From the IMG/VR virus record IMGVR_UViG_3300004369_000643, positions 1-64,000 of that record: 64,000 nucleotides of DNA; one strand, written 5' to 3'. The notes beneath the pieces were generated by a model that saw only the letters and a program-made list of their open reading frames with translations, searched no databases and had not been told where the DNA came from. A program made the position numbers and the translations under genes. This stretch comes from a virus. Shown here piece after piece: positions 6,765-33,766 of the stretch; the first letter of the stretch is position 1, and every line of letters starts with the position of its first letter.

Positions 6765-6860
6765 CCGTAGGGACACCATTGAGGGTAAATAGGGCTAATG
6801 CCGACCCTCGGTGCGTCCCGCCTGTGCTGGAAGGGTCGAACAGTCCAGCATCAGCCAAAA

Positions 6861-6930
6861 TAATGGCTGGACTGTTTCGGGAATAATGGCTGGACTATTT
6901 CGGGAATAATGGCTGGACTGTTTCGGGGTA
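6861..6930. repeat. 3 tandem copies of 23 bp TAATGGCTGGACTGTTTCGGGAA
   Basis: units start at 6861, 6884, 6907. Confidence 0.9.
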
Positions 6931-6971
6931 CAACAAAGCCCCAACTCCTATTGGAGTCAGGGCTAGTTGTG

Positions 6972-7016
6972 GGGGGATTCTGTTGCCACGTTCCCCGAAC
7001 GCCGAGTCTGGCTCAG
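6972..7016 (-). ncRNA. hairpin + H-type pseudoknot motif, copy A
   Basis: CGUU-loop-AACG UGGCAACAGAA; loop GGGG pairs with downstream CCCC. Confidence 0.6.
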
Positions 7017-7240
7017 TAATCGCTGTCCCAGCGTTCGCCCGCATAGGCGGGGTCAAACCAACTAGGTGCGAAGGGGCTGTCAGGATAGTCCTGACGAATC
7101 CGCTCATCACGCTCCAGTCGGATGTCCCAGTGCCGGTCACACCGAGGGAACGATGTGCCGGAACCGCTGAGTGACATACGGTAAATCGTCTCGCCTGCGC
7201 AAGCGCCGTTACCGTTGTCCAAACAGTCGTCGTGAGTCAT
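7013..7240 (-). CDS. hypothetical protein with Cys/His residues
   Basis: AAGGAGGTGA SD. Confidence 0.65.
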   Translation of the reverse strand: MTHDDCLDNGNGACAGETIYRMSLSGSGTSFPRCDRHWDIRLERDERIRQDYPDSPFAPSWFDPAYAGERWDSDY

Positions 7241-7559
7241 ACTCACCTCCTTTCAGAGTTTGATCGTCGGGAGTCCGATAGACTCTCACTATCGCCTGTC
7301 CTGATGGCGACTCCCGATTGCTTATGGGCACAGTATGGCATAGGGGTGTGACAGCCGTCAAATCGTTCACTCTAAGCCCGCCAGCAGTAGGTTTGGGGGC
7401 AATATGCTGCCCATACGGTAATAGTCGCTTAGAACGGCTCCCAGAGGGGTATAACGGGTATTCTCAGCCCGTCAGTCTGCGCCCTATTCTGCGGTGGCGT
7501 GGGTGACTGTCACACCCGTCTGGCATACTGGCATTATCACCTAGAGGAGAGGAGATAGC

Positions 7560-7700
7560 GTGATTAGTTTGACCGAATATCTACTACCCGATTGGGTGGC
7601 GGTGACCATGATGGTCGGTGCCAACCTAGTTCCCCTCGCACTCACAGTGCGGGTGTCGTGGATCTCACGCCGGTGCCAGTGTAAGCGGTGCCGGTGGTGA
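7560..7700 (+). CDS. 46 aa membrane peptide with C-terminal CxCxxC
   Basis: manual translation; GGAG SD, own promoter at 7508-7529. Confidence 0.55.
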   Translation: MISLTEYLLPDWVAVTMMVGANLVPLALTVRVSWISRRCQCKRCRW

Positions 7701-7857
7701 CCACCACCGTTCGGGCGCACGCCCAGCCAGTCCCGAAAGTGGTGGCAACCTGAGGCAGTCCAGCCGATATTCGCCCGTGGCGGGGCTTTATGACCGTAGA
7801 AATGGTTAGATCCCCGCCAGAGAAGAGGGAGAGGGTTCTGACGGGGATCTAAATAGT

Positions 7858-7893
7858 TGGTTCCGGTAGGGGAGAACATTCCTACCGGAACCT
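7858..7893. terminator. perfect stem-loop, probable terminator
   Basis: GGTTCCGGTAGG...CCTACCGGAACC. Confidence 0.6.
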
Positions 7894-7907
7894 ATGTCAT
7901 GTTAGTT

Positions 7908-7953
7908 GGGGGATTCTGGTGCCACGTTCCCCCGAACGCCGATTCTTAGTCGG
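7908..7953 (-). ncRNA. hairpin + pseudoknot motif, copy B
   Basis: UGGCACCAGAA linker; GGGGG/CCCCC pseudoknot. Confidence 0.6.
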
Positions 7954-7967
7954 TTATGACGCTAGTG

Positions 7968-8129
7968 TCAGAGCCACTCGAAGATATCGCCGTCTGCGAT
8001 TTCTGAGTAGTCCAGACCCTCGGCGTCGGCAAGAGCGTGCCAGAAATCATCTTCTGTCAACATCCCCCGACGCTCTACGGCGTCCCAATTCACGTGATCA
8101 TGCCACGTGTCTCGGTTGGAACTAGTCAT
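7968..8129 (-). CDS. 53 aa acidic hypothetical protein
   Basis: manual translation MTSSNRDTWHDHVNWDAVERRGMLTEDDFW...; GGGGGTGA SD. Confidence 0.6.
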   Translation of the reverse strand: MTSSNRDTWHDHVNWDAVERRGMLTEDDFWHALADAEGLDYSEIADGDIFEWL

Positions 8130-8206
8130 ATTGTCACCCCCTCTCTGGTGTTGGTTGGTTTATCTATCATCATTATGCCATAAGGGTGTAACACCCCCCT
8201 TAGGAG

Positions 8207-8253
8207 CCGGTAGTTCGGTTGCCACGCCTACCGGAGCGCCGATGCTTAGTCGG
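8207..8253 (-). ncRNA. hairpin + pseudoknot motif, copy C
   Basis: loop CCGGUA pairs with UACCGG. Confidence 0.6.
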
Positions 8254-8280
8254 GGATCTGAGTGGTATGTAGCCACTAGG

Positions 8281-8313
8281 CTACGGCGGTACCACAATTA
8301 CGATAATAATCAA
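8281..8313 (-). CDS. minigene MIIIVIVVPP*
   Basis: AGGGGGTGA SD, TTG start; paralogous to 16014-16049. Confidence 0.55.
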   Translation of the reverse strand: MIIIVIVVPP

Positions 8314-8402
8314 GTGGCATCACCCCCTATCCGGTTCTTCGGGTTCATGTATTCATTGTTGCATACGGATGGCCCGCCGGTCAAATCGTAGCCATAGTTC
8401 CT

Positions 8403-8596
8403 AGAGATAGGGGTATCTCTCGGAGAGATAGGTGAATCGAACGTATGTTCGACGAACGTATGTTCGATGTTAGGTGACCTTAACACCGATAATTCCGATC
8501 AGATTAGTCGGGATATTAGGTGCGCCTAACATTGACAATCCCGATCAGATTAGTCGGGATATTAGGTGTCCCTAACATGGCGAACGCATGTTCGAT
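8403..8596. promoter_or_regulatory. operator array 1: CsoR-like site, 3 LexA boxes, 3 IdeR/DtxR-like cores, 2 IscR/Rrf2-like boxes
   Basis: CGAAC-N4-GTTCG at 8438, 8453, 8581; TTAGG-N4-C(C/T)TAA at 8470, 8516, 8562; CCGATCAGATTAGTCGG twice. Confidence 0.75.
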
Positions 8597-8817
8597 TTCT
8601 TCGACGCTGGGGACACCATAGGTTATTTATGGAGGATATGGCGAAAGCGAGTGTGGGGGCGGGTGAGAGAGTCCCGAATGGTGAAGAAAGAAAAGGCTGC
8701 AGGCAGGGTCAAATAGTCCAGCAAATAAAAATACATTGGCTGGACTGTTTCGGGGTGAAACACGGGTGGTTGGGGCATGAAAAAGCCCCCCGACTCGGTT
8801 GAGCCGGAGGGCCTTCG

Positions 8818-8838
8818 CTATGGCGGCGGTACTGCCAT
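8818..8838 (-). CDS. minigene MAVPPP*
   Basis: AAAGGGGTGA SD 6 nt before ATG; intrinsic terminator follows. Confidence 0.5.
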   Translation of the reverse strand: MAVPPP

Positions 8839-9215
8839 GTACCATCACCCCTTTCGTGGTTGGTGCGAATGGTTGGTAGTCTTTCAATCGGCTCCCCCGC
8901 ACTTCCTGTGGCACTACCTGTGCTGGGTTCTGTAGCCGTATCTTTTATGTACCTTCATACTATCGTTGGGGTGTGACAGTACCAACCTGCGGGTAGGGCT
9001 GTAACACGATTGTAACATTCACAAAAATATCCAAAAAAGTTTGCAAAAAAAGGTTGACAAACACGGGCGGGCGGGAAAGTTCGCAAAAAGTGTCGCATTT
9101 ACGAACGATTCGTGCAGCGGCAGCACGGCGAGACAGTCCAGCCGCCAAGCAGCAACTGCTGGACTGTTTCAGGGTAAACAAAAACCCCTCAGGCCGTAGC
9201 CCAAGGGGTAATGTT

Positions 9216-9262
9216 GCTAAGTTTCTGTTGCCACCTACTTAGCGAGGCCGGAACTTATCCGA
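9216..9262 (-). ncRNA. hairpin + pseudoknot motif, copy D
   Basis: CCU-loop-AGG UGGCAACAGAA; GCUAAGU pairs with ACUUAGC. Confidence 0.6.
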
Positions 9263-9265
9263 TAA

Positions 9266-9514
9266 TCACCAGTCCAACTGGAACTCGGCCATGATCTCAG
9301 CCCGAGTCATAGTCTCGTCGGTAGCGTAGTTGACTACTGCGTAGTCATCATCAGCCATATCACCGAAACAAGGCCACAAGTAGCCAGCCACCATACGGTG
9401 CCCGTTGCTACTCCACCGGTCGAACCACTGTGCGGCTGCTTCCATGATAGAATCGCACTCAATGTCGATTCCACCCGAATAGCAATAACCGCCATTCAGC
9501 GTGTAGGTAATCAT
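9266..9514 (-). CDS. hypothetical protein
   Basis: AGGAGGTGA SD, own promoter. Confidence 0.7.
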   Translation of the reverse strand: MITYTLNGGYCYSGGIDIECDSIMEAAAQWFDRWSSNGHRMVAGYLWPCFGDMADDDYAVVNYATDETMTRAEIMAEFQLDW

Positions 9515-9637
9515 CTCACCTCCTCTTCAGTTGTCAATGAACTTCTACTGTCAGGATATCAACGGGGTGTGACAATCAAAACCTGCGTACACTGCTGTAA
9601 CACGATTGTAACATTTAGGGGTTGACAAAAAGTTGAG

Positions 9638-9690
9638 CGCAGCCAACTCGCAGCCAACTCGCAGCCAACTCGCAGCCAACTCGCAGCCAA
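9638..9690. repeat. 11 bp tandem repeat CGCAGCCAACT x ~4.8
   Basis: direct reading. Confidence 0.9.
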
Positions 9691-9791
9691 GCGGCAGCAA
9701 CCTCAGACAGTCCAGCCCCCCAACCGGCAACGGCGGGACTCGCTGGGGCACAAAGAAAACCCCCACCCTCCGAAAAGAGTGGGGGAGTTCT

Positions 9792-10070
9792 TCACCAGCA
9801 GGCGTTTTCGATGTAAGCCCGCAAGTTGTAGGCTCCATCGTCACCGCCGAATGTTTCCTCGCACCATTCACCGAGTACGCTAGCAACCGCCCAGTACGCA
9901 AAAGGAATAGAAGCCTCGCCCTTTTCGTAATCCCAGACGTTGATAACTTCGCTAGGTTCGATACATTCAGGCATCGTTAGTTCGATGTACGCACCGCCGA
10001 AGTATTCGGCTCGCACGACATACGCTCCAACTCGCCATTCTGCGGTTATCACGTTTTCTATTGTTTCCAT
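9792..10070 (-). CDS. hypothetical protein
   Basis: AGGAGGTGA SD; terminator downstream. Confidence 0.7.
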   Translation of the reverse strand: METIENVITAEWRVGAYVVRAEYFGGAYIELTMPECIEPSEVINVWDYEKGEASIPFAYWAVASVLGEWCEETFGGDDGAYNLRAYIENACW

Positions 10071-10188
10071 TGTTCACCTCCTCAGGTGGTCTACCACCAC
10101 GATAGCACATCGGTGTACCAGATGTCAAACTTTAGATAATGTCACACCCATATGCTATAGTGAGGTTATCAGAAGAAATGGGGTGATT

Positions 10189-10323
10189 ATGACAACGTAC
10201 ACAGTTTGGGTTGGGGGTATCCCCGACGTTGAGCGAGTAACCTACGCCAAAGCCGTCGAAGTTTCTGACGGTTGGATTGCTGATGGATACGACGACGTGG
10301 TTATCGAAAAAGAAAGCGAGTAA
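10189..10323 (+). CDS. small hypothetical protein
   Basis: GGGGTGA SD; MTTYTVWVGG...; promoter at 10140-10161. Confidence 0.6.
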   Translation: MTTYTVWVGGIPDVERVTYAKAVEVSDGWIADGYDDVVIEKESE

Positions 10324-10355
10324 CCTACGCCAAAGCCGTCGAAGTTTCTGACGGT
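10232..10355 (+). repeat. 41 bp exact direct repeat (10232-10272 and 10315-10355)
   Basis: AGCGAGTAACCTACGCCAAAGCCGTCGAAGTTTCTGACGGT twice. Confidence 0.9.
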
Positions 10356-10594
10356 GAGTTACGGTGTAGAACCAACAACCACAACTTCAACAAGCACTAC
10401 CGTTTTGGCACGCTCTACGATACCGAAATGGCCACAACAACAACAGTAGAGCCTCATTATGAAGGCGGTCAGGGCTTTTTCGTGCCGTCGCACAGTCCCG
10501 ACATGGGGTTGGGGTCGGCTGGACTGTTTTGGGGTAGAAAGAAACCCCCAGCCCGAAAGAGGGGAGGGGGTGAGACTGAGGGTTTCTTAGATTT

Positions 10595-10780
10595 TTAGTA
10601 TTTCACTTCTACGTCGTAAGTGTTTTCCAGATACTTGACTACTTCGTCAAGTGTCATTGTGGGTAAAACTTCCTCGCTAACGTATGTGTTATTTACGCTG
10701 AGGGTTACTTCTGTAGGGTGTCCGTCGATAGTGTGTACGACGGCGTGCGTTACGTTATTATGTGTTTCTCTTCCTAGCAT
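10595..10780 (-). CDS. hypothetical protein
   Basis: AGGAGA SD before MLGRE. Confidence 0.6.
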   Translation of the reverse strand: MLGRETHNNVTHAVVHTIDGHPTEVTLSVNNTYVSEEVLPTMTLDEVVKYLENTYDVEVKY

Positions 10781-10923
10781 CTTATCTCCTGTTCTGCTAT
10801 CACTTCCTTTCGTGAAGTGTCTCGAAGGATACTTTCCTTCTTTGGTTGCTCCCAGTATACCAGAGTCGGTACATAAAAGCAACCCCTACCGGCGGATACC
10901 AGTAGGGGTTGTGGATAACTTGT

Positions 10924-11103
10924 TTATCGTCGGTCTAGTTGTTTGGCTACTTTGAGTGCCTGCTCCCTTGTGGGGAACGTGGCTCGTACTCCGTTACCGT
11001 TAGCCGTGTCGATTACTTGCCATCTGCTGCCTGTAGGCGAGAGGCGTATGTCGTATCGCTCTTTTTCCACCATACGTTTCCTTTCTGTATTGGTTGCTAT
11101 CAT
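10924..11103 (-). CDS. hypothetical protein
   Basis: ORF track; start uncertain. Confidence 0.5.
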   Translation of the reverse strand: MIATNTERKRMVEKERYDIRLSPTGSRWQVIDTANGNGVRATFPTREQALKVAKQLDRR

Positions 11104-11222
11104 CGTACCACGTCGATTATCTCTTGTCAAGTTATTCGATTGACTTGACAACGGCGAGTGTATCGGGTAAGATAGGTAACGAGATAGAGAAAGGCTCTAT
11201 CCATAAGGAAAGGTATCATCAC

Positions 11223-11453
11223 ATGATGAGAGGACAAGTAAAGTTTATCCAAGTTACCGGCAAGGTTGTCGAAGTTTGGTACGAGTCAATGACTGGCGAC
11301 AGTTCCGACTCTATCATTGACCGGCACGAATGGCACAGCCATCGTCGGGCGATGGAAGTTGCGGCTCATATTGCTGCTCCTCACGGTTGCGTTGTTCATA
11401 ACGCATGGGAAAATCGCCCTATCCTCACGCTGAATAACGACTCACTCGTGTGA
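11223..11453 (+). CDS. hypothetical protein
   Basis: AAGGAAAGG SD; terminator at ~11481-11510. Confidence 0.6.
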   Translation: MMRGQVKFIQVTGKVVEVWYESMTGDSSDSIIDRHEWHSHRRAMEVAAHIAAPHGCVVHNAWENRPILTLNNDSLV

Positions 11454-11619
11454 TGAAACCCCTCTCCGGTTCTCGGTAGCAAAACCCCCAGCCTTCGGGT
11501 TGGGGGTTTTGCTTTACCCCGAAACAGTCCAGCCCTACCCACTTCCCCCTCGGGGCTTGTTTGGGGTACGAAAAAGCCCCCACTCTCAGGACACTTTTTG
11601 AGAGTGGGGGCTTAGACTG

Positions 11620-11907
11620 TCAGCAATCGCAGTCGTAACCGACCGTGCCACAATCGGGACACTTGCTGATACAAGGAACGCACCAGCCCCAGTATTCGGG
11701 GTCAAGTACGTCGGAGAACCGGAACTCGTCGGCGGTAAATGACTCGCCACAGTCGTGGCAACCGAACTTGACGACTAGGTTATTCACCACGCCTGCTCGT
11801 TCGGCTTGCCTAACAGCCACCGCCCATACCGTACGGTAGATGGGGGAGAGACTGCTCCGGTAGGACACCCGATAGTCGGGTGCGTTGTCAATGTTACTGT
11901 AGAACAT
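11620..11907 (-). CDS. Cys-rich putative zinc-finger protein
   Basis: three CxxC pairs; SD present. Confidence 0.6.
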   Translation of the reverse strand: MFYSNIDNAPDYRVSYRSSLSPIYRTVWAVAVRQAERAGVVNNLVVKFGCHDCGESFTADEFRFSDVLDPEYWGWCVPCISKCPDCGTVGYDCDC

Positions 11908-12261
11908 TGTTCCTTCCTTCCTATGTTCGGTGGGGCTTAGCGGACTCTCACCGCTACCGGGCCTTCTGGCAAGCCCCACTTGCTTATGCCTTCATACTAC
12001 CAGCGGGGTGTGCCAATACCAACGTCGGAAACATTCTGTTCACATTCGTTCACATTCTGGAAACAATCGGAAAATGCGAAAGTTTCGCAAAAGTACGGCT
12101 GCGAGAAAAACCAGAACGGCTGCGAAAACCAGAGAAACAAGATAAAATGCGAAACATTTTACCTGTACCAACACCCCGAAACAGTCCAGCCGCAGCAGGC
12201 GGCAGTCGGGACTCATTGAGGTACAAAGAAACCCCCAGCCCGTCTGGACTGAGGGTTCTTC

Positions 12262-12384
12262 TCACTTCTTGTCCCGATACTTCTGCGCTCCTCGCTTGGG
12301 GAAGTGTCTCCCTGATGCAACAAACCGTGATGCTGTTGCGCTGATGGGGCGACGGATAGGCTCGTGACCTTGATTACCTGTCAT
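12262..12384 (-). CDS. small basic hypothetical protein
   Basis: GAAAGGA SD, terminator follows. Confidence 0.5.
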   Translation of the reverse strand: MTGNQGHEPIRRPISATASRFVASGRHFPKRGAQKYRDKK

Positions 12385-12506
12385 ATGTTTTCCTTTCTGT
12401 CTACCACCAGTATAACCCACCGCCTCCGGTTTCGCAACTTGCGTAGCCATACTGTAACCTTGTCTCAAGTATTTACACTGTCACACCCATCTGGTACACT
12501 ACAAGC

Positions 12507-12671
12507 ATGAAAGACAACGGACACAAATGGTACGCAGACGACACCGACGTTTACTGCAAACAATGCGGGTGCTACGCCGGTGGTCGATACGCCTCCGAAA
12601 CATGCGAAGCCGTGTTGTATTCTCACCACGCTAGTGCTATACTGGAAGCAGATAGAAAGGATAGGGTATGA
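12507..12671 (+). CDS. 54 aa leaderless Cys-containing protein
   Basis: ATG 6 nt after TACACT -10; overlaps next start (ATGA). Confidence 0.5.
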   Translation: MKDNGHKWYADDTDVYCKQCGCYAGGRYASETCEAVLYSHHASAILEADRKDRV

Positions 12672-12871
12672 AACAAACCACCCATCGTCCCCAACGGGTA
12701 ACCGAACTTCCTCTCGGCATTTCGGTTTCCTCCGTTCACTACGACTTAGAGTATGACGACATGAAGTCTCGGCTCAACGAGACATGCGTGTTCTTTCCCG
12801 ACGGGAACTCTCAAGTGCGTGGAACTTACGACGACCATGACAAGGTAGTCAACGAACTAATCCACGCTTGA
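12668..12871 (+). CDS. hypothetical protein
   Basis: ORF track; SD; terminator follows. Confidence 0.6.
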   Translation: MKQTTHRPQRVTELPLGISVSSVHYDLEYDDMKSRLNETCVFFPDGNSQVRGTYDDHDKVVNELIHA

Positions 12872-12902
12872 GTTGCTTGGATAGTGGCAAAGCCCTCGGC
12901 AC

Positions 12903-13475
12903 CTACGGGTGTCGGGGGTTTTTTGCTTCCCGCTGGACTGTTTCGGGGTGGATACGAACTTTGTTTCGCAGCATTGCATCGTGGAGATCAACGAATGTTT
13001 CAGATCCTAACACATTATTCACGATTGTCAAGTAGATCCTTGCGAACTCTTTGCCGTGTGCCGAGAAGTGTTGTCCGTTTTCGGCATCGCACCAACAGCA
13101 AATATGAGTTAGTTCGTGGATCAAAGTGAGATGGTTTCTGCTCCAAAGGGGTAAAGTGATGGTTGAGTAGCAACTTTCTGCGTGACGGCGACGATATCCG
13201 GGTCGAAGTTTGAGTCCCCGCCGCCGATCCCCGTGATAAAGGTAGATCAGCCGTTTGTTCGGGCGGTGTTCTTGGGGGTCAGACAGTCCAGCCGCTGCAG
13301 CGGAACCCGTCAAATACGCAGCGGTTCTAGGAAAGTTCGATAAAAACCACGAAGATTTGAGTATTTCTACCAGAAACTTCCAGCATTCGTGCAGCGAAAG
13401 ACGTTCATATTCGTCAATAAGTTCCCACTCCGCCCGGTAAAGCCGGGTTCGCTGATAGTCTCGCTCAAGTTTCAT
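12903..13475 (-). CDS. putative HEXXH metallohydrolase (TIGR04338 / Rv0185-like)
   Basis: RLYRAE N-terminus, ITLPLW, LIHELTH, AHGKEF motifs. Confidence 0.7.
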   Translation of the reverse strand: MKLERDYQRTRLYRAEWELIDEYERLSLHECWKFLVEILKSSWFLSNFPRTAAYLTGSAAAAGLSDPQEHRPNKRLIYLYHGDRRRGLKLRPGYRRRHAESCYSTITLPLWSRNHLTLIHELTHICCWCDAENGQHFSAHGKEFARIYLTIVNNVLGSETFVDLHDAMLRNKVRIHPETVQREAKNPRHP

Positions 13476-15026: not shown

Positions 15027-15305
15027 ATGATGAAACACTATTACATAGGCATCCGCATGATGGCTGACCGTATCGGTCTTGACCCTTGGGATGTTCACCT
15101 GCCTACGTTGCGCACGTTCGTTCGTGACGCTGAGGGTGCACCCACTTCACGGTTCTGGTTCGGTTCCCCTTGCCGGTTTATCCGATCGGTGGACATCGCC
15201 GTTCACGTTTGGTTGCCCGATGCACTCATGGAGCGCCACCCTATGCTAGCGTGCTACCTGCGCACCACTAGCCCCCGATGGGGTAAGGCATGGAGGTCGT
15301 GGTAA
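15027..15305 (+). CDS. hypothetical protein
   Basis: leaderless ATG 6 nt after TATACT. Confidence 0.55.
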   Translation: MMKHYYIGIRMMADRIGLDPWDVHLPTLRTFVRDAEGAPTSRFWFGSPCRFIRSVDIAVHVWLPDALMERHPMLACYLRTTSPRWGKAWRSW

Positions 15306-15706: not shown

Positions 15707-15841
15707 TCACTCTGCGTTGATCAGAGCGAAGGGATCTGTGCGATTCGCCGTGTCAACGAAGACGATGGTCTCGCACTCGTAGCACTCGCCCTCATCGTTG
15801 AGGTAGTCTTCGAATGCTCCGCAGTTGATGCAGTTGCTCAT
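15707..15841 (-). CDS. 44 aa zinc-ribbon-like protein
   Basis: MSNCINCG...ECYEC; SD and terminator. Confidence 0.55.
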   Translation of the reverse strand: MSNCINCGAFEDYLNDEGECYECETIVFVDTANRTDPFALINAE

Positions 15842-15940
15842 CTGTTCTTTCCTTTCTTCTTGATACTGTCATAGTATCAGCGAGGTGTGTCGATCACAAC
15901 CTGTCTCGGTCGATGTAACACGACTGTAACAAAGTGGGTT

Positions 15941-15986
15941 GACCGGTTCTGTTGCCACGCTCCGGTCAGCGCCGACTCTCAGTCGG
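15941..15986 (-). ncRNA. hairpin + pseudoknot motif, copy E
   Basis: loop GACCGG pairs with CCGGUC. Confidence 0.6.
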
Positions 15987-16013
15987 GGGTGGTGAGGTGC
16001 TGTAGCCTCACGG

Positions 16014-16049
16014 CTACGGCGGCTCCACGATTATGATGATCATCATCAA
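16014..16049 (-). CDS. minigene MMMIIIIVEPP*
   Basis: perfect AGGAGGTGA SD, TTG start. Confidence 0.55.
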   Translation of the reverse strand: MMMIIIIVEPP

Positions 16050-16144
16050 GTGGAATCACCTCCTGTCCGGTTCTCTTTCATGACTTCATCTTACCGTTCC
16101 CCCCACGTTCGACAACCTGTGCCGACCGATTTTGTGTCTCTAGT

Positions 16145-16719
16145 AGAGATACCCCCTATCTCTGATAGATATGGGGCGGCTCACAGCAGGAAGGCACGGC
16201 ACTCGCCGTGCTACTCGCCTGTCGGCGGGCGAACCGACCGAGTGTAGATCGGCACCCCTCATGTCAAGTCGAAGCAATCGAACACATGTTCGATCAGAGC
16301 CGACCTCACCCGACCGAACACATGTTCGATCCGACCGAAACCCGACCGAACTAGTCGGGAATCAAACCCGACCAACCTAGTCAACAATCAAAAGCCGACC
16401 AACTAGGTCAACAATCAAACCCGACTGAACTAGTCGGGAATCGAAACCCGACCAAACCAGTCAACAATCAAAAGCCGACCAACTAGGTCAACAATAAAAG
16501 CCGACCAGAACAGTCGGGAATCAAAGCCGACCAGAACAGTCGGGAATCAAAGCCGACCAAACCGGTCGGGAATCAATCGAACACACGTTCGATCCGAACG
16601 AGAACGTGAACACAATCACAAAGCGAACACATGTTCGATCAACAACACCAACAATCGAACAAACGTTCGATCAACCAAAGCCGACCCCAATGTTACAGTT
16701 TGATGACAAACTTGACAAA
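16145..16719. promoter_or_regulatory. operator array 2: CsoR-like site, 5 LexA boxes, 9 tandem IscR/Rrf2-type boxes, PhoB/OmpR-like direct repeats
   Basis: CGAAC-N4-GTTCG at 16279, 16315, 16578, 16624, 16656; CCGAC-N7-GTC(GG/AA) x9 at 16338-16573. Confidence 0.75.
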
Positions 16720-16822
16720 GGCAAAGCGATGTGCTGCAGGGCCTCGGGACTTTTCGAGGGTGACTTCATAGCGGGGGCGTTGGTGTGACATATTTTTAGG
16801 TGTGGTTGTGGTTTGTGTTATC

Positions 16823-18709
16823 TCATGGTTTGGTGTTGAGTATGTTTTGGATTGCGGTTTGGGTGATGGCTGGTTGTGTTTTTTGGGTTTTGTTTTGTAG
16901 GGTGTTGTAGATGTGTTGGTCTATGGTGTTGGGGTTGATGAGGTTGTGTATTGTGGCGGGTTGTGTTTGTCCGATGCGGTGGATTCGGGCGCAGGTTTGG
17001 TGGTATTTGGCGGGTGTCCATGGGGCTTCGATGAAGAGCATGTTGTTTGATGCGGTTAGGGTGTGTCCGTGTGCTGCTGCGTCTATGGAGATGACGATGT
17101 TTTTGCAGTTTGTGTTATTCATGAATTCGTGTTTTGCGGTTTCGGTCTTTTGGGGGTTTTGGCCTCCGATGATCATTGGGGCGTTTAGTTCGTTGGCTAG
17201 GGTTTGTACTATGTGGCGGTGGTGGGCGGCGATGACTATTTTTTGTCCTGAGTTGTTGGCGTTTTCGATCCATTCTAGGGCGTGGGGGATTTTGGATTGG
17301 GCGGCGATTTTTCTGAGTTCTGTGAGTTGGATGAGGTTTTCGTAGTTTTGTGTTGCGTAGTGTGCTCGGATTCGGGCGGCTGTGGGGTTGGTGCCTTCGT
17401 TGATGGCGAGTTGTTCTTGTTGTTGTGTGTACCATTCTTGGAGGTCGTTGAGGGCGTGGTTGTACATTGTGCGGTGTTTTTTGTCCATTGTGGTGTGGAT
17501 GGTGTTGTATGTGATTGGTGGTAGGTCGGTGAGGACGTGTTGTTTTTCTCTGCGGATGTAGCAGTGGGTTTGTAGTTTGTTGAGTAGTTCTTTGTTGTTG
17601 GTTGATCCGTGTATTTGCCAGTGTCCCCAGTTGTCTCTGTAGGCTCCGCAGTAGCGTTTGTAGAAGTTCCAGCGGCCTCCGAAGTTGTCGATGTGTCCTA
17701 GGATTTCTAGTTGGGGTGCGTATTCGGCGGGCATGTTGGTGATGGGGGTGCCGGTGAGGAGTAGGATGTTGCCGGTGGTTGGGATGTTTTTTGCTATGTT
17801 TTTGGCGGCTTTTGTTCGTTGTGCGTCTGGGTTTTTGCAGTAGTGTGATTCGTCTAGGATGAGTGTGTTGTGGTGTTGGTTGTTGAGGTGTTGTTTTTGG
17901 GCGTGGATGTTGGGGTATCCGATGATGGTGTAGTCGGTTTCGGTCAGTTCGGGGGTTTTGCGGCCTTCGATGATTTGGATGGTGCGGTGGGGGAGTGCTT
18001 CTTGGATTTTTGTTTTCCAGTCTTCTGTGAGGCTGGTGGGGCAGATGATGAGGGCGGGGTATTGGTTTGTGTATTCTGTGGTGGCTAGGGCTTGGAGTGA
18101 TTTGCCTAGTCCCATTTCGTCTGCGATGAAGGTGCGTTGTTTTTCGGCGGCGTATGCTACGCCTGCTTTTTGGTAGGGGTAGAGTTGTAGTTGTAGGTTG
18201 GGGATGGTGATGTTTGCGTCGGTTGCTTGGGTGAGTTCTTGGGCGTGTTGTGCTTTTTTGGTTTCGATTTCTGCTTGTGTTTGGATGTGTTCGGGTATGG
18301 GGTGGTTGTATTTGTTTGCCCATTGGATGAGTTCGTGTACGTTGTTGTATGGTGTTTCCCAGTGGTTGTGGTGGGGGTTCCATTTGATGCCGGGGATGGC
18401 TTTGAGTTCGTGGATTTGTAGTGTGTCGTAGGGGACGCTGATTTTTAGGATGTCTTTTTCGAGTCTTATGGTGGTAGCCCCGATTGGGTGGTCGGGTAGT
18501 TGTAGGCGTATTAGTTCTTCGTCCACGTCGATGTTCCATGAGTTGGCGAAGGATATGGCTCGTTTTAGGGCTGGGAGGGGTATTGTCCAGTGTTTGTTGA
18601 GTTTGTCCCAGCGTGCGTGTGGGAATGATGTTTTGAGGGCTGTTATTTCGTCTTTGTTGTATGGTGTGTCTAGGACGAGTTGTGTGCCGTTTAGGTAGAG
18701 TCGTTTCAT
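16823..18709 (-). CDS. SNF2-family (SMARCAL1/HARP-like) helicase
   Basis: ADEMGLGKS, LDESH, LTGTP, Q-x-x-ARIHRIGQ; N-terminal HARP-like W repeats; start at MKRLY. Confidence 0.9.
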   Translation of the reverse strand: MKRLYLNGTQLVLDTPYNKDEITALKTSFPHARWDKLNKHWTIPLPALKRAISFANSWNIDVDEELIRLQLPDHPIGATTIRLEKDILKISVPYDTLQIHELKAIPGIKWNPHHNHWETPYNNVHELIQWANKYNHPIPEHIQTQAEIETKKAQHAQELTQATDANITIPNLQLQLYPYQKAGVAYAAEKQRTFIADEMGLGKSLQALATTEYTNQYPALIICPTSLTEDWKTKIQEALPHRTIQIIEGRKTPELTETDYTIIGYPNIHAQKQHLNNQHHNTLILDESHYCKNPDAQRTKAAKNIAKNIPTTGNILLLTGTPITNMPAEYAPQLEILGHIDNFGGRWNFYKRYCGAYRDNWGHWQIHGSTNNKELLNKLQTHCYIRREKQHVLTDLPPITYNTIHTTMDKKHRTMYNHALNDLQEWYTQQQEQLAINEGTNPTAARIRAHYATQNYENLIQLTELRKIAAQSKIPHALEWIENANNSGQKIVIAAHHRHIVQTLANELNAPMIIGGQNPQKTETAKHEFMNNTNCKNIVISIDAAAHGHTLTASNNMLFIEAPWTPAKYHQTCARIHRIGQTQPATIHNLINPNTIDQHIYNTLQNKTQKTQPAITQTAIQNILNTKP

Positions 18710-19587
18710 GTTCTGTTTTTGGGGTAGGGGTAGGTTTTGTTGTTTTGTTCGAATTGTTTTTTGAGTTGTTTGGTTTCTTTTTTGTTTTGTCCTAAGATGA
18801 GTGCGTATTTGTGTTTTGCGGGTACTTGTACGGGTGTTGCGTTTGCTTGTACGGTTTTGCTGTGTTGGCGTAGTTGTTGTTCGATGTGGTCGGGTATGTT
18901 GTTCCAGATGATGGTGCTGTCTCTGTTCCAGTTGGGTTGCCATTCGATGTTGAGTTCTTTAGCGTATTTTTTGTATGCTGATCTTGCTCGGAAGAAGCGG
19001 TCTGATACGACTTTGCCTGAGTAGGGGTTGATGTAGCGGGTTGTGCCGCCTGAGTTTTGGCCGAGGTAGTAGAAGTTGCAGGCTTGGTATACGGTGCCTA
19101 GTTCTTTTGCGAGGGGGTCTGAGTAGGCGGTGAATAGGCGGTATTGTGTGTTTTGTACCATCCATTTAATTGACCACATGATGAAGGCGCTTGCAAGGTT
19201 TTTGGGTGACCATGAGATGCAGGCTCCTCGTCCGATGAGGCGTTCTATTTCTTTTGTGTTGTCGCCTAGTAGTTTGCTGAAGGCGTTGGGCATACTGAAT
19301 AGGAGTACGCCTGCGAGTTGGTTGTTGTGGTATGCGCCGAACCAGTGTGTGGTGTAGAGGCTTGTTGTGCCTAACCATTCGTGGCGTTTGATGAATTCTG
19401 TTGCGTCTTTGTGTTCTTGTTCTGTGGTTAGGGGTGTGAATGTGAAGTCGTTGACTGTGAGTAGTTGTGCTTGTTGTAGGGTGATGCCTGCTTGTTGTAG
19501 GTCTTCGTCTAGGTTTTGTAGACGCATTTCGTATTGCCAACAGTGTTCTTTGTTGTATGCCCGTAGTTCGGGGATTGTGGGTGTCAT
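18706..19587 (-). CDS. Mom-like GNAT-fold DNA modification enzyme
   Basis: FIKRHEWLG, PKNLAS, AYSDP...GTVYQACNFYYLG motifs of the Mu Mom family. Confidence 0.7.
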   Translation of the reverse strand: MTPTIPELRAYNKEHCWQYEMRLQNLDEDLQQAGITLQQAQLLTVNDFTFTPLTTEQEHKDATEFIKRHEWLGTTSLYTTHWFGAYHNNQLAGVLLFSMPNAFSKLLGDNTKEIERLIGRGACISWSPKNLASAFIMWSIKWMVQNTQYRLFTAYSDPLAKELGTVYQACNFYYLGQNSGGTTRYINPYSGKVVSDRFFRARSAYKKYAKELNIEWQPNWNRDSTIIWNNIPDHIEQQLRQHSKTVQANATPVQVPAKHKYALILGQNKKETKQLKKQFEQNNKTYPYPKNRT

Positions 19588-19904
19588 AGCCTTACGTGGT
19601 AGCCTTCGTCTAGGAACAGGGGTGTGTTTTGTCCCATGTACGCATTGTAGATGTTGTATTCTGCGTATTCTTCGGCTTCTTCGCCTGTCATACCGTCTCG
19701 CTGTATGAGGATTTTGGTGATTTTTTGTTTACTATAGACTGCGAGCGCTACTCTGTTTACGTTACCGTCGTTGTCTTTTTGATAAACTTCGGTGTGCCCG
19801 ATGCAGGCTTCTTCTAATCCATCTGCGAATAGTGCTTCGGGGTTGACTTCGGTAAGGTAGTCTACCGTGTCTGTGTAAATGGGGATAAATCCGTATGCTT
19901 CCAT
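19584..19904 (-). CDS. conserved phage hypothetical protein
   Basis: ADGLEEACIG...EEAEEYAEYNI...AYMG-x-x-TP. Confidence 0.7.
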   Translation of the reverse strand: MEAYGFIPIYTDTVDYLTEVNPEALFADGLEEACIGHTEVYQKDNDGNVNRVALAVYSKQKITKILIQRDGMTGEEAEEYAEYNIYNAYMGQNTPLFLDEGYHVRL

Positions 19905-19943
19905 ACGTGCTATTTTATCACATACACCGATTGGTGGCAAATT

Positions 19944-20918
19944 TTAGTAGTTGCCGCCGCCGTCTGGTAGCAGAAGTAGTGGGTCTCCGTCGTCGTGGTT
20001 GATGCCGTATGAGGGGAGTTCTTCCCATAGTACTTTGTCGTAGGGGATTTCTGGGTGGTTTCTGCTGAGCCATGTGCGTGTGATTGTGCAGTTGGGGTAG
20101 TAGAATCCGCCGTCGTCTCCCCAGCGCTGGAAGAAGTGTTCGTTGGAGTTTGATCTGTTGGTGAGGAGGTCGTCTGCCATAATTTCGTATGGGACGTGTC
20201 CTCCTGCTTTTTCTACTTCTGATTCGGCTACGAGCCGGTTGCACCAGTGTGCTACGACTGCTGGCCGTTTTACACCACTTTGGGTGGGCTGGGCGGCTCT
20301 GTGTACTGACCGTCCGTGCCATACTTGTAGGTCGCCCCGTCGGGCGTGGAGTTGCACGATTGGGGCGTCGATTTCTTTCCGGTGGTCTTCAAATTCTTGG
20401 CTTGATACGTGCCCTCCGCCGTCTGGGGTGGGCTTTTGTGAAAACCGTTCACGATAGTTTAAATCCCATTTATGTGATCCGGGGATTGCTTCGATTGCAC
20501 CGTTTTCTTCGTTGCAGTCACCTAATGCTACCATTCCTCCAACGTAGTTTTGTGGCCCTACTTCGTGTGGGTGGTTTGCGTCAATGTGCCATCCGGTGTG
20601 TTGTACTGTCATACGTGTTTTGGTGACGTGGAGCGCTACGGCAATGTCGATTTCTTTGAAGAAGTCGTTTACACCTTTGTGGCAGAGCACTTCTTTCAGT
20701 TCGGGGACGTGCATGTACGCTTTGTCGTCTTCCCATCCTATGAAGTGTGGGTTTTCGGGTGTATCGAATTCGGCGTCCCAGCGGTTCCCGTATGAGTCTA
20801 GTGACTCTTCGGGAACTGCGTTGGGGATGATGGCAAAGCCATACTTTTCGTAGAATTCGGCTGTGTCTGTTCTTTCGCCGTTGTATTCGTAATTGTCAAT
20901 AACTGTGATTTCGCTCAT
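19944..20918 (-). CDS. PhyH-family 2OG-Fe(II) dioxygenase
   Basis: WHID, ENGAIEAIPGSH, GDLQVWHGRSVH. Confidence 0.85.
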   Translation of the reverse strand: MSEITVIDNYEYNGERTDTAEFYEKYGFAIIPNAVPEESLDSYGNRWDAEFDTPENPHFIGWEDDKAYMHVPELKEVLCHKGVNDFFKEIDIAVALHVTKTRMTVQHTGWHIDANHPHEVGPQNYVGGMVALGDCNEENGAIEAIPGSHKWDLNYRERFSQKPTPDGGGHVSSQEFEDHRKEIDAPIVQLHARRGDLQVWHGRSVHRAAQPTQSGVKRPAVVAHWCNRLVAESEVEKAGGHVPYEIMADDLLTNRSNSNEHFFQRWGDDGGFYYPNCTITRTWLSRNHPEIPYDKVLWEELPSYGINHDDGDPLLLLPDGGGNY

Positions 20919-21002
20919 GCCCCTATTTTACCACTTTTCTTTCTGCCATCATACAAACTCATCGTTTACCCTGATGAGTCGCTATGCTTTCATGTTGTTA
21001 TT

Positions 21003-21863
21003 TTACACTATTTTTTCTGCGGCGTCTAGGGTGTTGATGTGTGAGTACACTAGGCTGTCCATTGTTTGTGACATGGTGTAGCCTCCGGCGAGTACGTATG
21101 CGATGGGAATGTTGTATTGTTTTGCCCATTGGAATACGATGTTGTCTCGTTCGGCTAGTGTCTGGTGTGTGATTGTGGGGTAGGGGTCTGTTCCTGCATT
21201 ATACAAAATGACTCTTGTGTTGAGTTTAACTTTGTCTAATGTTTCGTTTACGGCGTCGATGTATTCGGTGTCTGATCGTGCGATTTTGATGTTGTGTGTT
21301 TCATCTTGGTCGTATTCGTCAAATCCGTTTGTTGAGATGTCGTATTGTTCTACTCTGTCATCTATGTTGAGGTGCCGTAACATGTTAACTGTTCCTCCTC
21401 CGCAGTGGGCGTCGAAGTCTAGAATGGTGACGTGGTGGTCGAATAGCCAGTTTGCTGTTACTGCTAGTCCGTTTACTGTGCAGAATCCTGAGCCGTGTTT
21501 GTGGTCGGCGTGGTGTAGCCCTGATGAGAGGCTTCCTGCTACAGTGTTGTGGTCTATTGCGTGTGCGGCGGCTGACATTACTCCTGCTGTGGAGTTGAGT
21601 ACCATCTGGTAGATTCCGTAATCCCATTTGAACCCGTTACTTTCGGCTAGGTATAGAGGGTCTCCCTTTTCTAGCGAGTCGAAGTATAGTCCGTCTAGCG
21701 CTGTTTTGATTTCAACGTAGGCGTCTTTGGTCATGTTTGTGGGATCGGTTACGTTTTCTTCACCGATTGTTTTTACGATTTCTTCGCTTTTTCGTGTTGT
21801 ATCAAAGGCGTGCTCTGCGCCAGTGTAATGTTTGTTCCAATAAATGGGGTGGGTGTATGTCAT
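21003..21863 (-). CDS. histone-deacetylase-family hydrolase
   Basis: GLHHA, GSGFC, LDFDAHCGGGT, YNAGTD, GGY. Confidence 0.9.
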   Translation of the reverse strand: MTYTHPIYWNKHYTGAEHAFDTTRKSEEIVKTIGEENVTDPTNMTKDAYVEIKTALDGLYFDSLEKGDPLYLAESNGFKWDYGIYQMVLNSTAGVMSAAAHAIDHNTVAGSLSSGLHHADHKHGSGFCTVNGLAVTANWLFDHHVTILDFDAHCGGGTVNMLRHLNIDDRVEQYDISTNGFDEYDQDETHNIKIARSDTEYIDAVNETLDKVKLNTRVILYNAGTDPYPTITHQTLAERDNIVFQWAKQYNIPIAYVLAGGYTMSQTMDSLVYSHINTLDAAEKIV

Positions 21864-21876
21864 TGTGCTCCTTTCT

Positions 21877-22557
21877 TCAGGGCGCAACTTTGTAGTTTTG
21901 TACAAAGTGTTGATATGTGACGGGCATGTGTGATGATAGGAAATGTTCGACTGCATATGCGTATTGACGGATTTCCCATTGTGCGGTTTCGTCTGCCCGT
22001 AGGTTAATAAAGTTCATTAACGCTCTTGCGTTTGTTGTTGCGTAGAACTCTGTGTATGTTGATACAGGGAGTACCATGCGTGCTACTTCTTTTGCTACTC
22101 CTTGTTCTAGAAGTTTTTGGTATGTTGTGAATGATTCGTCATATGACTTAACCATTACGTCTTTAGAGAACTGAGGGTTTTCTAAAGGTTCGAATGTGTA
22201 GGCTCCGGGTTTACCTACCTGACTGCGTATTTGCTGACTGTCAGGTAGGTAGGCTACGGCGGGTAGTTCACTGTAGCGCCCTGAGTATTCGTTGTATGAC
22301 CAACCTATACGGTGTCTGAACCATTCTCGCACCACAAAGATGGGTGCTTTGATGTGGAAACGAAAGAAGTTGTGTTCGAAAGGGGTTCCGTGCTTTTCTC
22401 TCATGAGGAAGCCGATTAGTCCTTTGTCTCGTTCTGTCATTTCTGTTTGTGTTGCTCCGAAACTAACTCTTGCAGCGTTCACTACTGACAGGTCGTCAGC
22501 ATTTACTGCGTCTAGTCGCACGAAGCCGTGGTCTAACACTGTAAGTTGGTTTGTCAT
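21877..22557 (-). CDS. thyX: flavin-dependent thymidylate synthase
   Basis: HGTPFEH, RHR-x7-SGRY, EVARMVLP, AQWEIR. Confidence 0.95.
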   Translation of the reverse strand: MTNQLTVLDHGFVRLDAVNADDLSVVNAARVSFGATQTEMTERDKGLIGFLMREKHGTPFEHNFFRFHIKAPIFVVREWFRHRIGWSYNEYSGRYSELPAVAYLPDSQQIRSQVGKPGAYTFEPLENPQFSKDVMVKSYDESFTTYQKLLEQGVAKEVARMVLPVSTYTEFYATTNARALMNFINLRADETAQWEIRQYAYAVEHFLSSHMPVTYQHFVQNYKVAP

Positions 22558-23150
22558 CAGACGTTTACTCCGAAGTTACGATTGTAGACATGGAAGTCTG
22601 TCTTCTTGCGGGGTGCCTTCAAGTATATAGGGCCGTCGTATGCGCCGTGCTCAATGATGTGCTCTTGCAATTCATGGGGCAGGTGTTGGGGTAGTAGTAC
22701 TCCTTCGTCATGCATGTCGGTGTCTACGTATGTGAGGTGAGCCTTGTGGCGGAAGTCGGTTCTTCCACCGAAGTCTTCAATCCAATAAACCTTTTGTCCC
22801 TTTTCTTGTAGTTCTTGAGCCAAGGGCAAGCAGGCATCGAACTTCCATCTAACTGATCGTTCGTTGGTTCCGTCAGTAATCACGGGGATGTCTTGAGGGA
22901 TTCCTAGAATGGGCGAGATGTGTTCGTTTGCGTTTTCTCTCCACGTGGTCAACCAGTATAGGTCGGTACTCATGTACAGCCCTTGTATCAGTGCCATCAT
23001 GTATTCGGGCACCCATACGGTGTAACCGTTGGCCTTGTAGGGAAGTGTTTCTGCATCAAAGTTAATGTCACCTCGTGTGTATAGGTGGTTGATGCTGTTG
23101 ATAACACCGTCTACGTCAAGAAAAACTGCGTATTCATTTGTTGCTTCCAT
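22557..23150 (-). CDS. HAD-family phosphatase (Swiss-army-knife RNA repair-like)
   Basis: FLDVDGV, WLTTW, K, WIED. Confidence 0.8.
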   Translation of the reverse strand: MEATNEYAVFLDVDGVINSINHLYTRGDINFDAETLPYKANGYTVWVPEYMMALIQGLYMSTDLYWLTTWRENANEHISPILGIPQDIPVITDGTNERSVRWKFDACLPLAQELQEKGQKVYWIEDFGGRTDFRHKAHLTYVDTDMHDEGVLLPQHLPHELQEHIIEHGAYDGPIYLKAPRKKTDFHVYNRNFGVNV

Positions 23151-26650: not shown

Positions 26651-26665
26651 TTACGGGGGTTCCAT
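26651..26665 (-). CDS. minigene MEPP*
   Basis: AAAGGAG-aagat-ATG GAA CCC CCG TAA. Confidence 0.4.
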   Translation of the reverse strand: MEPP

Positions 26666-26703
26666 ATCTTCTCCTTTGTTGTCCTGATCAGGCCCATCTC
26701 TCG

Positions 26704-27075
26704 GTGGTGACCAAATCGGTCAGTTAGTGGTGACCAAATCGGTCAGTTACCTTTATATTTGATCCATCTGTCAATTAGTGCCAAAGTGGTCAGTATCCTT
26801 TCTCATACATAGGTACATCTATCGATGTGACCCTGTATGGTCAGTTAATCCGTCTATAAATGTCTAATTGGTCATATTTCCTCCTTAGCCTTATACTTTC
26901 CCCGACGGGCATAGATTCCTGTACGAAAGTGTTTGGTGCCTCCTATGTCCTGTCCCTTATGACGGGCATTATCTGTGAAAATGAAATACTTACATTAGAT
27001 GAATGGTGCGTATTGTCCCTCCATGAAAGTCGCTTATACTTTTCATGACGGGCAGTAAGTTCTGAAATGAAAGCC
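26704..27075. repeat. non-coding repeat cluster (TGACC-N5/7-GGTCA; GACGGGCA x3), candidate origin or operator array
   Basis: 23 bp tandem pair at 26704-26749 plus degenerate copies. Confidence 0.6.
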
Positions 27076-33541: not shown

Positions 33542-33766
33542 ATGATTAAACTTTCCAGCCCGGAATGGTTCAAAGATGCGCCGTGTCGGGGTAATGACCG
33601 TACTTTCTTTTCCAGTAAGCCGTCAAAGCGGAAGAGCGCTATCGATGTGTGCTCTGGATGTTCTAGTGCATCTAAGTGTTTGGATTACGCAGTATCCAAT
33701 CAGATAACTATTGGTGTTTGGGGCGGAAAGACCGGCCCTGAATTAGACAGGCTAGTTAATTCATGA
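33542..33766 (+). CDS. whiB: WhiB-family transcription factor
   Basis: four Cys (C...CxxC-x5-C) and GVWGG. Confidence 0.9.
   Translation: MIKLSSPEWFKDAPCRGNDRTFFSSKPSKRKSAIDVCSGCSSASKCLDYAVSNQITIGVWGGKTGPELDRLVNS

Follow-up and report, generated by a model that had tools for sequence, protein, structure and literature searches.

Two control regions of a virus genome, module A (positions 8130-8620) and module B (15842-16822), were analysed in the first 64 kb (hereafter the window) of IMG/VR record IMGVR_UViG_3300004369_000643, a single 102,594-bp virus sequence of 45.8% G+C. The two loci carry their elements in identical order and are best explained, with about an even chance of being right in our estimate, as paralogous promoter, operator and translated-leader regions for small early genes, probably read by the LexA repressor of the host.

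Homology and anatomy of the two control regions

Alignment of the two modules showed clear homology over ~150 nt, with 72% column identity across the whole aligned stretch; the arrays of A and B have motifs in common and no alignable sequence. A first-pass annotation of the window had described a duplicated composite that kept each of its elements, in the same order on the plus strand, despite sequence divergence. Every listed element is indeed present at both loci and the shared order stands, but the strand assignment does not, since all elements are read on the minus strand, where they run 5′ to 3′ as arrays, AGAGATA palindrome, promoter, AACCGGA, Shine-Dalgarno sequence (SD), mini-open reading frame (mini-ORF), stop hairpin and pseudoknot, with a spacer of ~15 nt between the GUAGCC hairpin and the P1 hairpin plus pseudoknot. 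The plus strand folds equally well or better (z-scores of -3.6 and -4.0); a plus-strand RNA was nevertheless ruled out, because only the minus strand is compatible with the G-U pairs of the pseudoknot family and with the gene context. The elements of module A are:

8438-8594, three SOS-box-like palindromes, at 8438-8451 and 8453-8466 (an abutting pair) and at 8581-8594
between these SOS boxes, a 46-bp repeat in 2.5 copies that contains TTAGG-N5-CCTAA and CCCGAT-N7-GTCGGG palindromes
8403-8430, three AGAGATA/TATCTCT half-sites making two overlapping palindromes
8355-8384 (-), leader promoter, TTGACC-18-AACAAT with a TG extension
8281-8327 (-), SD GGGGGUGAU (8327-8319) and mini-ORF UUG...CCG CCG UAG (8313-8281), MIIIVIVVPP*
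8269-8284 (-), stop hairpin, GUAGCC-UAGU-GGCUAC over the stop codon
8207-8253 (-), P1 hairpin and pseudoknot, S2 CCGGUAG/CUACCGG, 67.6 bits

The elements of module B are:

16690-16718 (-), sigma70-like promoter, TTGTCA-17-TAACAT (9/12), just downstream of the helicase stop and reading into the arrays
16577-16670, three SOS-box-like palindromes, at 16655-16670, 16623-16638 and 16577-16592
16338-16576, 26-bp iterons, 9.1 tandem copies, Tandem Repeats Finder (TRF) score 212
16278-16329, two further SOS-box-like palindromes, at 16314-16329 and 16278-16293
16267-16241, weak TTGACA-15-TACACT, 10 nt downstream of an SOS-box-like palindrome
16145-16163, AGAGATA-N5-TATCTCT palindrome, ~30 nt upstream of the -35 of the leader promoter
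16088-16115 (-), leader promoter, TTGTCG-16-TAAGAT, read by eye (8/12, under the scanner threshold)
16014-16063 (-), SD GGAGGUGAU (16063-16055) and mini-ORF UUG...CCG CCG UAG (16049-16014), MMMIIIIVEPP*
16002-16017 (-), stop hairpin, GUAGCC-GUGA-GGCUAC, with the UAG stop in its 5′ arm
15941-15986 (-), P1 hairpin and H-type pseudoknot, S1 CGC/GCG, S2 GACCGG/CCGGUC, loop 3 UGGCAACAGAA, 62.9 bits

The weak, sigma70-like leader promoters of A and B occupy homologous positions, the -10 hexamer ending 6 nt before a conserved ATGAA in both, and the AGAGATA-N4/5-TATCTCT palindrome is found nowhere in the 102.6 kb except in the two modules. A promoter followed by a conserved transcribed unit of minigene and pseudoknot is the natural reading of this arrangement, as had been proposed. 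Both mini-ORFs start with UUG (10 codons in A, 11 in B, the copies differing by one whole codon) and follow an SD that is a 9-nt complement of the 16S rRNA 3′ end; the gene at 8129 has this same word, GGGGGUGA, as its SD. A C-terminal Pro-Pro ahead of the stop codon slows termination, and Pro-Pro-stop is a stalling motif; SD-led frames ending in Pro-Pro-stop are present in A and B, and one ending in Pro-Pro-Pro-stop lies at a third minus-strand locus:

8777-8838 (-), third paralogous minigene, SD GGGGUGAUG and AUG GCA GUA CCG CCG CCA UAG (MAVPPP*, 8838-8818)

The SD word GGGGUGAUG and the string GUACCGCCG are shared by this third copy, which has one additional in-frame CCA relative to A. Copy A differs from B and from the third copy by indels whose lengths are multiples of three in the Pro-Pro-stop frame. 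The minigene frame survives in the three paralogues, whose 3-nt indels are in frame, and the description of the unit as non-coding was not upheld. Of the 159 SD-led mini-ORFs, those at 5 loci end in Pro-Pro, against a rough chance estimate below 1. Judged from these features of the sequence, the Pro-Pro-stop minigene is probably translated. A tag-like +2 frame (AVA-stop in copy A) was rejected, since the stop is absent from copy B and most of the substitutions are at first codon positions.

The structure at the stop codon of A and B is a 6-bp hairpin without a U-tract, and is therefore not a terminator. Two nucleotides (2 nt) separate the stop of the third copy from a 15-bp intrinsic terminator (8815-8782 with a following U-tract; z-score of -4.5), the textbook arrangement for attenuating read-through into module A by ribosome stalling. 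From the pseudoknot of A or B to the SD of the next gene the RNA is unstructured (z-scores of about 0), which places the knot in a 5′ leader and not at an RNA 3′ end; with no terminator between the knot and the next gene, the unit resembles a translated 5′ leader. The polyproline leader-peptide attenuator mgtP, of the Salmonella mgtCBR leader, likewise has an SD-led short ORF, consecutive Pro codons and a paused ribosome overlapping a downstream RNA structure. It differs in pausing at an internal PPP instead of Pro-Pro-stop, and the stop structure of A and B lacks the U-tract of a terminator; no anti-terminator alternative fold was identified.

Pattern searches for the 5′ part of the leader outside this genome returned matches attributable to chance: three for the hairpin-over-stop pattern in IMG/VR, all inside coding sequence, 37 for CCACTTGAT...CCGCCGTAGCC in Joint Genome Institute (JGI) metagenomes, also in coding sequence, and none at all for AACCGGA-SD-CCAC. 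A fourth mini-ORF, MEPP* with SD GGAG (26665-26651, minus strand), lies ahead of the replication operon, ~55 nt upstream of its first gene (start 26595; the operon includes SSB and primase-helicase genes), and is preceded by two copies of the palindrome TGACCGATTTGGTCA, 23 bp apart (region 26651-26760).

A pseudoknot family shared with tmRNA tails

A covariance model built from the five window copies of the pseudoknot and one copy from a relative recovers those five and no others in the window (63-75 bits); all lie on the minus strand, the strand of the flanking genes. Those outside modules A and B are free-standing:

7908-7953 (-), in the 3′ untranslated region (UTR) of the 53-amino acid gene downstream of module A, followed by a 12-bp hairpin, 75 bits
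6972-7016 (-), with the stop of a 75-amino acid gene inside P1, followed within ~10 nt by a strong intrinsic terminator (z-score of -6.3), 65.5 bits
9217-9262 (-), after an 82-amino acid gene, with an intrinsic terminator 8 nt later (z-score of -4.6), 65.7 bits

A degenerate pattern of the conserved letters matched 110 stretches in IMG/VR, against roughly four estimated by chance. Across 49 distinct sequences the fold comprises the P1 hairpin and an H-type pseudoknot with a 3-bp S1 (C-G, G-C, Y-R), a 6-7-bp S2 and an invariant 11-nt loop 3. Pairing is kept in 94.4% of cells, compared with 71.6% in shuffles; double changes are seen at 6/6 S2 pairs, the variable S1 pair is U-A (23), C-G (22) or U-G (4) with 0 mismatches, and the G-U wobble pairs fit only the gene-sense strand. 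The pseudoknot fold is real, strongly supported by covariation.

The motif is identical to the 3′ tail of the alpha-type two-piece transfer-messenger RNA (tmRNA). The consensus tail of Rfam RF01849 matches it letter for letter, including UGGCAACAGAA, in the same architecture of a hairpin followed by CGGCG(Y)U, S2a, (R)CG, UGGCAACAGAA and S2b. In GC-poor viral contigs the motif ends genuine phage two-piece tmRNA genes (tag ANESYALAA), in which the tag stop lies within the P1-equivalent hairpin directly before the pseudoknot; in GC-rich viral contigs and in this phage it stands alone after ordinary genes, ahead of a promoter, an SD or a terminator. Bacterial matches to the paired-S2 pattern, searched in one genome per species, lie chiefly at alphaproteobacterial tmRNA tails, with one more in a phage-like contig; the few remaining paired matches and all unpaired ones resemble chance. 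Unlike the tmRNA tail, the knot in this phage has neither a tRNA-like domain nor a degradation tag, it follows ordinary protein genes or lies inside a 5′ leader, and permuted tmRNA is not known from the probable host phylum.

A tmRNA gene was rejected as an explanation because there is no tRNA-like domain. With default thresholds ARAGORN called no tmRNA, either in the window or in the whole genome, and its calls at relaxed thresholds were spurious. An Rfam scan of the window gave nothing at gathering score; in E-value mode, the sole match in 6.8-16.9 kb was a sub-threshold one to RF01849 (alpha_tmRNA; 18.5 bits) at the 7908 copy. The mini-ORFs also depart from a tmRNA tag, having their own 9-nt SD, a UUG or AUG start and an end in VVPP or VEPP, not an Ala-rich degron. 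A literature search for the loop-3 word returned primers only, and free-standing tails are not described in the tmRNA database paper (PMC11915505).

Beside these results, viral contigs of ~30% G+C (L016, L024, L025 and many other IMG/VR loci) carry complete permuted tmRNA genes with a promoter directly after the pseudoknot. In the GC-rich viral contig L072, a free-standing copy of the pseudoknot is followed ~400 nt downstream by a Pistol ribozyme (8429-8502; 45.9 bits, above gathering score). In the window, ~650 nt on the minus strand between the 7908 copy and the 75-amino acid gene (7250-7900) have a sole ORF that translates implausibly, and this stretch may be a further non-coding RNA.

Predicted SOS boxes, iterons and related phages

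The sequence CGAAC-N4-GTTCG has 8 matches in the window, compared with 0.07 expected, and 0/100 shuffles reached 8; three are in A, five in B and none elsewhere in the genome. All eight match 15-16 of the 16 positions of the palindrome TCGAAC-N4-GTTCGA, close to the Streptomyces LexA consensus tCGAAC-N4-GNNCGa from chromatin immunoprecipitation sequencing (ChIP-seq; PMC9380542). This excess and the consensus fit make the assignment of the boxes to LexA, proposed in the first-pass annotation, strong at sequence level, and the boxes are predicted sites that fit the actinobacterial LexA operator. Relative to the 16718 promoter, one box spans about +12 to +27; another lies 10 nt upstream of the weak TTGACA.

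The phage, of ~100 kb, probably has an actinobacterial host and a lytic lifestyle. A WhiB-family gene (33542-33763, plus strand) is present, WhiB being a hallmark of Actinobacteria and their phages. The best matches of the portal are Brevibacterium and Gordonia phage proteins (~40% identical), and those of the primase-helicase and SNF2 helicase are Arthrobacter phage proteins (~30% identical). A full-length phage RecA is encoded at 31612-32583 (minus strand; Pfam E = 1e-137), and neither an integrase nor a classical repressor was seen among the phage genes.

Other palindromes accompany the boxes. Each module B iteron consists of a CCCGAC-N7-GTCGGG-type palindrome followed by TTTGATT, and palindromes of the form CCCGAY-N7-GTCGGG are common to both modules, A having two within its 46-bp repeat. 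On the minus strand the module B iterons score as terminator-like hairpins (8 sites, compared with 1.6 expected). The idea that several host stress regulators read these arrays was not supported. The best match to an IdeR/DtxR box was 14/19 to TTAGGTTAGSCTAACCTAA (a 19-bp palindromic consensus) and had the wrong spacing, the outer TTAGG and CCTAA lying 5 nt apart instead of 9. Five iterons match the YYGACTRWWWYAGTCRR core at 15-16/17 positions, and 10 of the 12 such matches genome-wide fall inside the array; this core is the E. coli IscR/Rrf2 type-1 consensus, and IscR is not known as a typical regulator of actinobacteria. The labels CsoR and IscR amount to resemblance only, and that of CsoR is without support.

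Eleven related contigs were found through the helicase (77-94% identity). SOS boxes follow directly after the helicase stop in 6 of the 8 relatives with sequence there, at 1-7 each (seven in L004, four in L005, at least three in L009, two in L010 and one each in L007 and L008; zero in L013), and abutting box pairs with a spacing of 15-16 bp recur in several relatives. In the 105-kb viral contig L008, 12 DnaA boxes (TTNTCCACA) lie within 260 bp right after the helicase gene (7984-8330). A long CT-rich low-complexity run follows them at the contig end. GTCGG/CCGAC words reach 41 per kb in the hub of this phage and 27 per kb in that of L004, compared with ~2 per kb elsewhere. Seven of the eleven contigs end ≤450 nt from the end of the helicase match, L004, L009 and L010 breaking inside repeat arrays. 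A conserved 92-amino acid gene, on the helicase strand in L005, L007 and L013, is inverted here (15027-15302), which marks the hub as a rearrangement hot spot.

The relatives also separate the arrays from the leader. L005 and L007, with >1.3 kb beyond the helicase, have boxes followed by other genes and no minigene-pseudoknot unit; when ten related contigs were searched with the 196-nt RNA part, the one match was to the pseudoknot of L005, the sole one in that contig, which is located ~470 nt away, between other genes and on the opposite strand. Three of the five window pseudoknots, in 3′ UTRs, have no array. The proposal of one integrated system is contradicted by these array-less copies, by ~100 copies in unrelated viral contigs and by the relatives' arrays without a leader; in the relatives that could be examined the elements are unlinked, the outcome that the proposal itself had named as contrary to it. 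The composite is a set of juxtaposed cassettes duplicated once within this genome, and not a conserved integrated machine. No DNA-level match to modules A and B was obtained among 50,697 phage records (megablast and blastn).

Host LexA controls phage promoters in coliphage 186 (tum) and CTX-phi. A further example is promoter P1 of Bacillus phage GIL01, with gp7 (PMC4551915). These systems likewise place SOS boxes, sometimes multiple and adjacent, in phage early control regions; they differ from the present loci, where three and five predicted boxes per region lie mostly upstream of the promoter in a phage that looks lytic and carries its own RecA.

Proposed early gene control, alternative explanations and genome context

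From the observed anatomy, statistics, pseudoknot covariation and family, and box conservation in relatives we infer a mechanism whose every step is conditional. Each locus would start a minus-strand early transcription unit from a mosaic region of near-perfect SOS boxes with phage-specific palindromes and iterons, a weak promoter with an AGAGATA operator, and a ~150-nt leader, and transcription would read on into one or two tiny ORFan genes. The arrays would be occupied by host LexA and one or more further dimeric regulators, which would tie transcription, and perhaps also replication initiation at the helicase-proximal array, to the SOS state of the host, which phage RecA could help to flip. 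Ribosomes would load on the leader and pause at Pro-Pro-stop, and this pause would alter the folding or stability of the RNA downstream; the logic would be clearest in the third paralogue, where a paused ribosome must cover the 5′ arm of the terminator. The pseudoknot would serve as a compact, nuclease-resistant divider, a role that fits because its other copies sit at mRNA 3′ ends just before terminators.

Several observations weigh against LexA-controlled, translated leaders. The boxes are mostly off the leader promoters (53-80 nt upstream in A; the nearest ~160 nt upstream in B), which is not classical repressor geometry, and CGAAC-N4-GTTCG could be recognised by a phage protein instead of LexA. 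The promoters are weak consensus matches (8-9/12), the scanner has no actinobacterial promoter model, and the actinobacterial host is itself deduced from WhiB and from best matches to actinophages. The start codon of the mini-ORF lies within an AU-rich hairpin, and the palindrome alone could yield its Ile/Val codons. Only two copies of the 5′ part of the leader were found anywhere searched, so that the leader fold and ORF are supported by two or three paralogues.

The arrays, and the helicase-proximal array of module B in particular, may instead be a replication origin or control hub in which the iterons bind a phage initiator and the flanks host proteins, with the leader promoter merely adjacent or a source of activating transcription; we regard this as possible, though on balance doubtful, and it may well coexist with LexA-controlled leaders. 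The 9.1 tandem 26-bp iterons immediately beyond the SNF2 helicase gene and close to those for the primase-helicase and SSB, the 12 DnaA boxes at the equivalent position in L008, the GTCGG/CCGAC enrichment in the hubs of this phage and L004, and the ends of 7/11 related contigs near the helicase, three of them inside repeat arrays, are as expected of an origin. The cumulative GC skew, flat to 17 kb and rising from there, points the same way but largely tracks gene orientation. The iteron-plus-DnaA-box origins of P1 oriR, F and pSC101 likewise have tandem direct repeats of ~20-26 bp beside replication genes, and a DnaA cluster is present in the relative; this genome differs from them in having no DnaA-box cluster, no AT-rich unwinding element (maximum 62-67% A+T in 40-bp windows) and no identified Rep-type initiator, and its iterons are themselves palindromes. 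LexA-type boxes are moreover not a usual origin component, and module A is a second similar array far from replication genes.

It is improbable that the minigene and pseudoknot form an independent trans-acting small RNA that mimics the message half of tmRNA and would act by sensing or disturbing ribosome rescue, Pro-Pro stalling or elongation factor P (EF-P) activity. Its pseudoknot equals the tmRNA tail, the tag stop of phage two-piece tmRNA also lies in a hairpin directly before the pseudoknot, and Pro-Pro before a stop is generally known to slow termination; against this, ARAGORN and Rfam find no tRNA-like domain, the frame has a strong SD and start codon of its own and ends in VVPP or VEPP where a degron would be Ala-rich, and no terminator follows the pseudoknot in either module. 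The same pseudoknot also occurs after ordinary genes, and therefore does not by itself imply tmRNA function. The first-pass annotation had offered decoys as an option, with the arrays titrating host regulators (LexA here, DnaA in the relative) and so triggering SOS or blocking host initiation. Nothing tested supports decoys, and we hold this to be very improbable: sites are dense, most boxes are off promoters and lie nearer to the consensus than most chromosomal SOS boxes (PMC9380542), the syntenic L008 site is packed with DnaA boxes and box number varies from 1 to 7 among relatives, but eight sites per genome copy are few without strong amplification of the phage DNA, no known host regulator corresponds to the other palindromes, and the box at +12 to +27 of the 16718 promoter is in a normal operator position. 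A quite improbable conjecture combines several of these ideas: a variable host-regulator hub (LexA boxes here, DnaA boxes in the relative) would gate small tmRNA-like minigene RNAs, on which ribosomes loading at the 9-nt SD would jam at Pro-Pro-stop in the hairpin and be held on pseudoknot-capped RNA, the phage thereby sensing or sabotaging ribosome rescue, EF-P activity or termination capacity in SOS-induced cells.

If the reading as LexA-controlled early leaders holds, an uncultured actinophage with its own RecA wires its early units, and possibly its origin, to the host SOS repressor, which would be unusual for a phage without recognisable lysogeny genes, and polyproline-stop leader peptides would join the phage regulatory repertoire. 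Modules A and B extend the range of the tmRNA-tail pseudoknot to 5′ leaders in a phage of a probable host phylum not known for permuted tmRNA, and its presence there argues for a general RNA-level role of the knot, such as stability or insulation, that is not tmRNA-specific. Among close relatives, LexA boxes, iterons and DnaA boxes replace one another at the syntenic position, a natural experiment in how host DNA-binding proteins are read by phages.

Both loci are flanked by minus-strand genes, the SNF2 helicase gene ending at 16823 and the next genes starting at 15841 (module B) and 8129 (module A). A PHROGs search gave no function for the genes downstream of the modules:

15707-15841 (-), 44-amino acid Cys-rich ORFan gene downstream of module B
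7968-8129 (-), 53-amino acid acidic ORFan gene downstream of module A

Gene calls in 6-19 kb were based on ORFs, SDs and the appearance of the translations; the codon-usage caller was unreliable there and missed the helicase. The phage also encodes SSB, ThyX, thymidine kinase, PolA and RNR, and elsewhere in the genome sigma70 r2/r4 proteins, two ParB_N proteins, Rad52 and a histone-deacetylase-domain protein. Strand asymmetry is extreme in 17000-23000 (plus-strand GC skew +0.47, AT skew -0.57), as a consequence of which the minus-strand helicase, Mom-family and PhyH-dioxygenase genes are nearly free of G and T; relatives show the same asymmetry in the helicase 3′ end.

Three further repeated words were observed. 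A tandem word, TGTTACA(A/G)T-NG-TGTTACA, occurs four times on the minus strand of the early region (2134, 9017, 9613 and 15931, the last between the module B pseudoknot and the next gene), with single TGTTACAC copies at 8193 and 6128, and resembles a binding site or a duplicated extended -10 element. One TGTTACA doublet is adjoined by a perfect 11-nt tandem repeat, CGCAGCCAACT, in 4.8 copies (9638-9690). The word CCCCGAAACAGTCCAGCC occurs ~9 times in 6839-12944 on both strands, usually directly after an intrinsic terminator and sometimes paired with an inverted GCTGGACTGTT, and could be a promoter for a phage sigma factor, or an operator.

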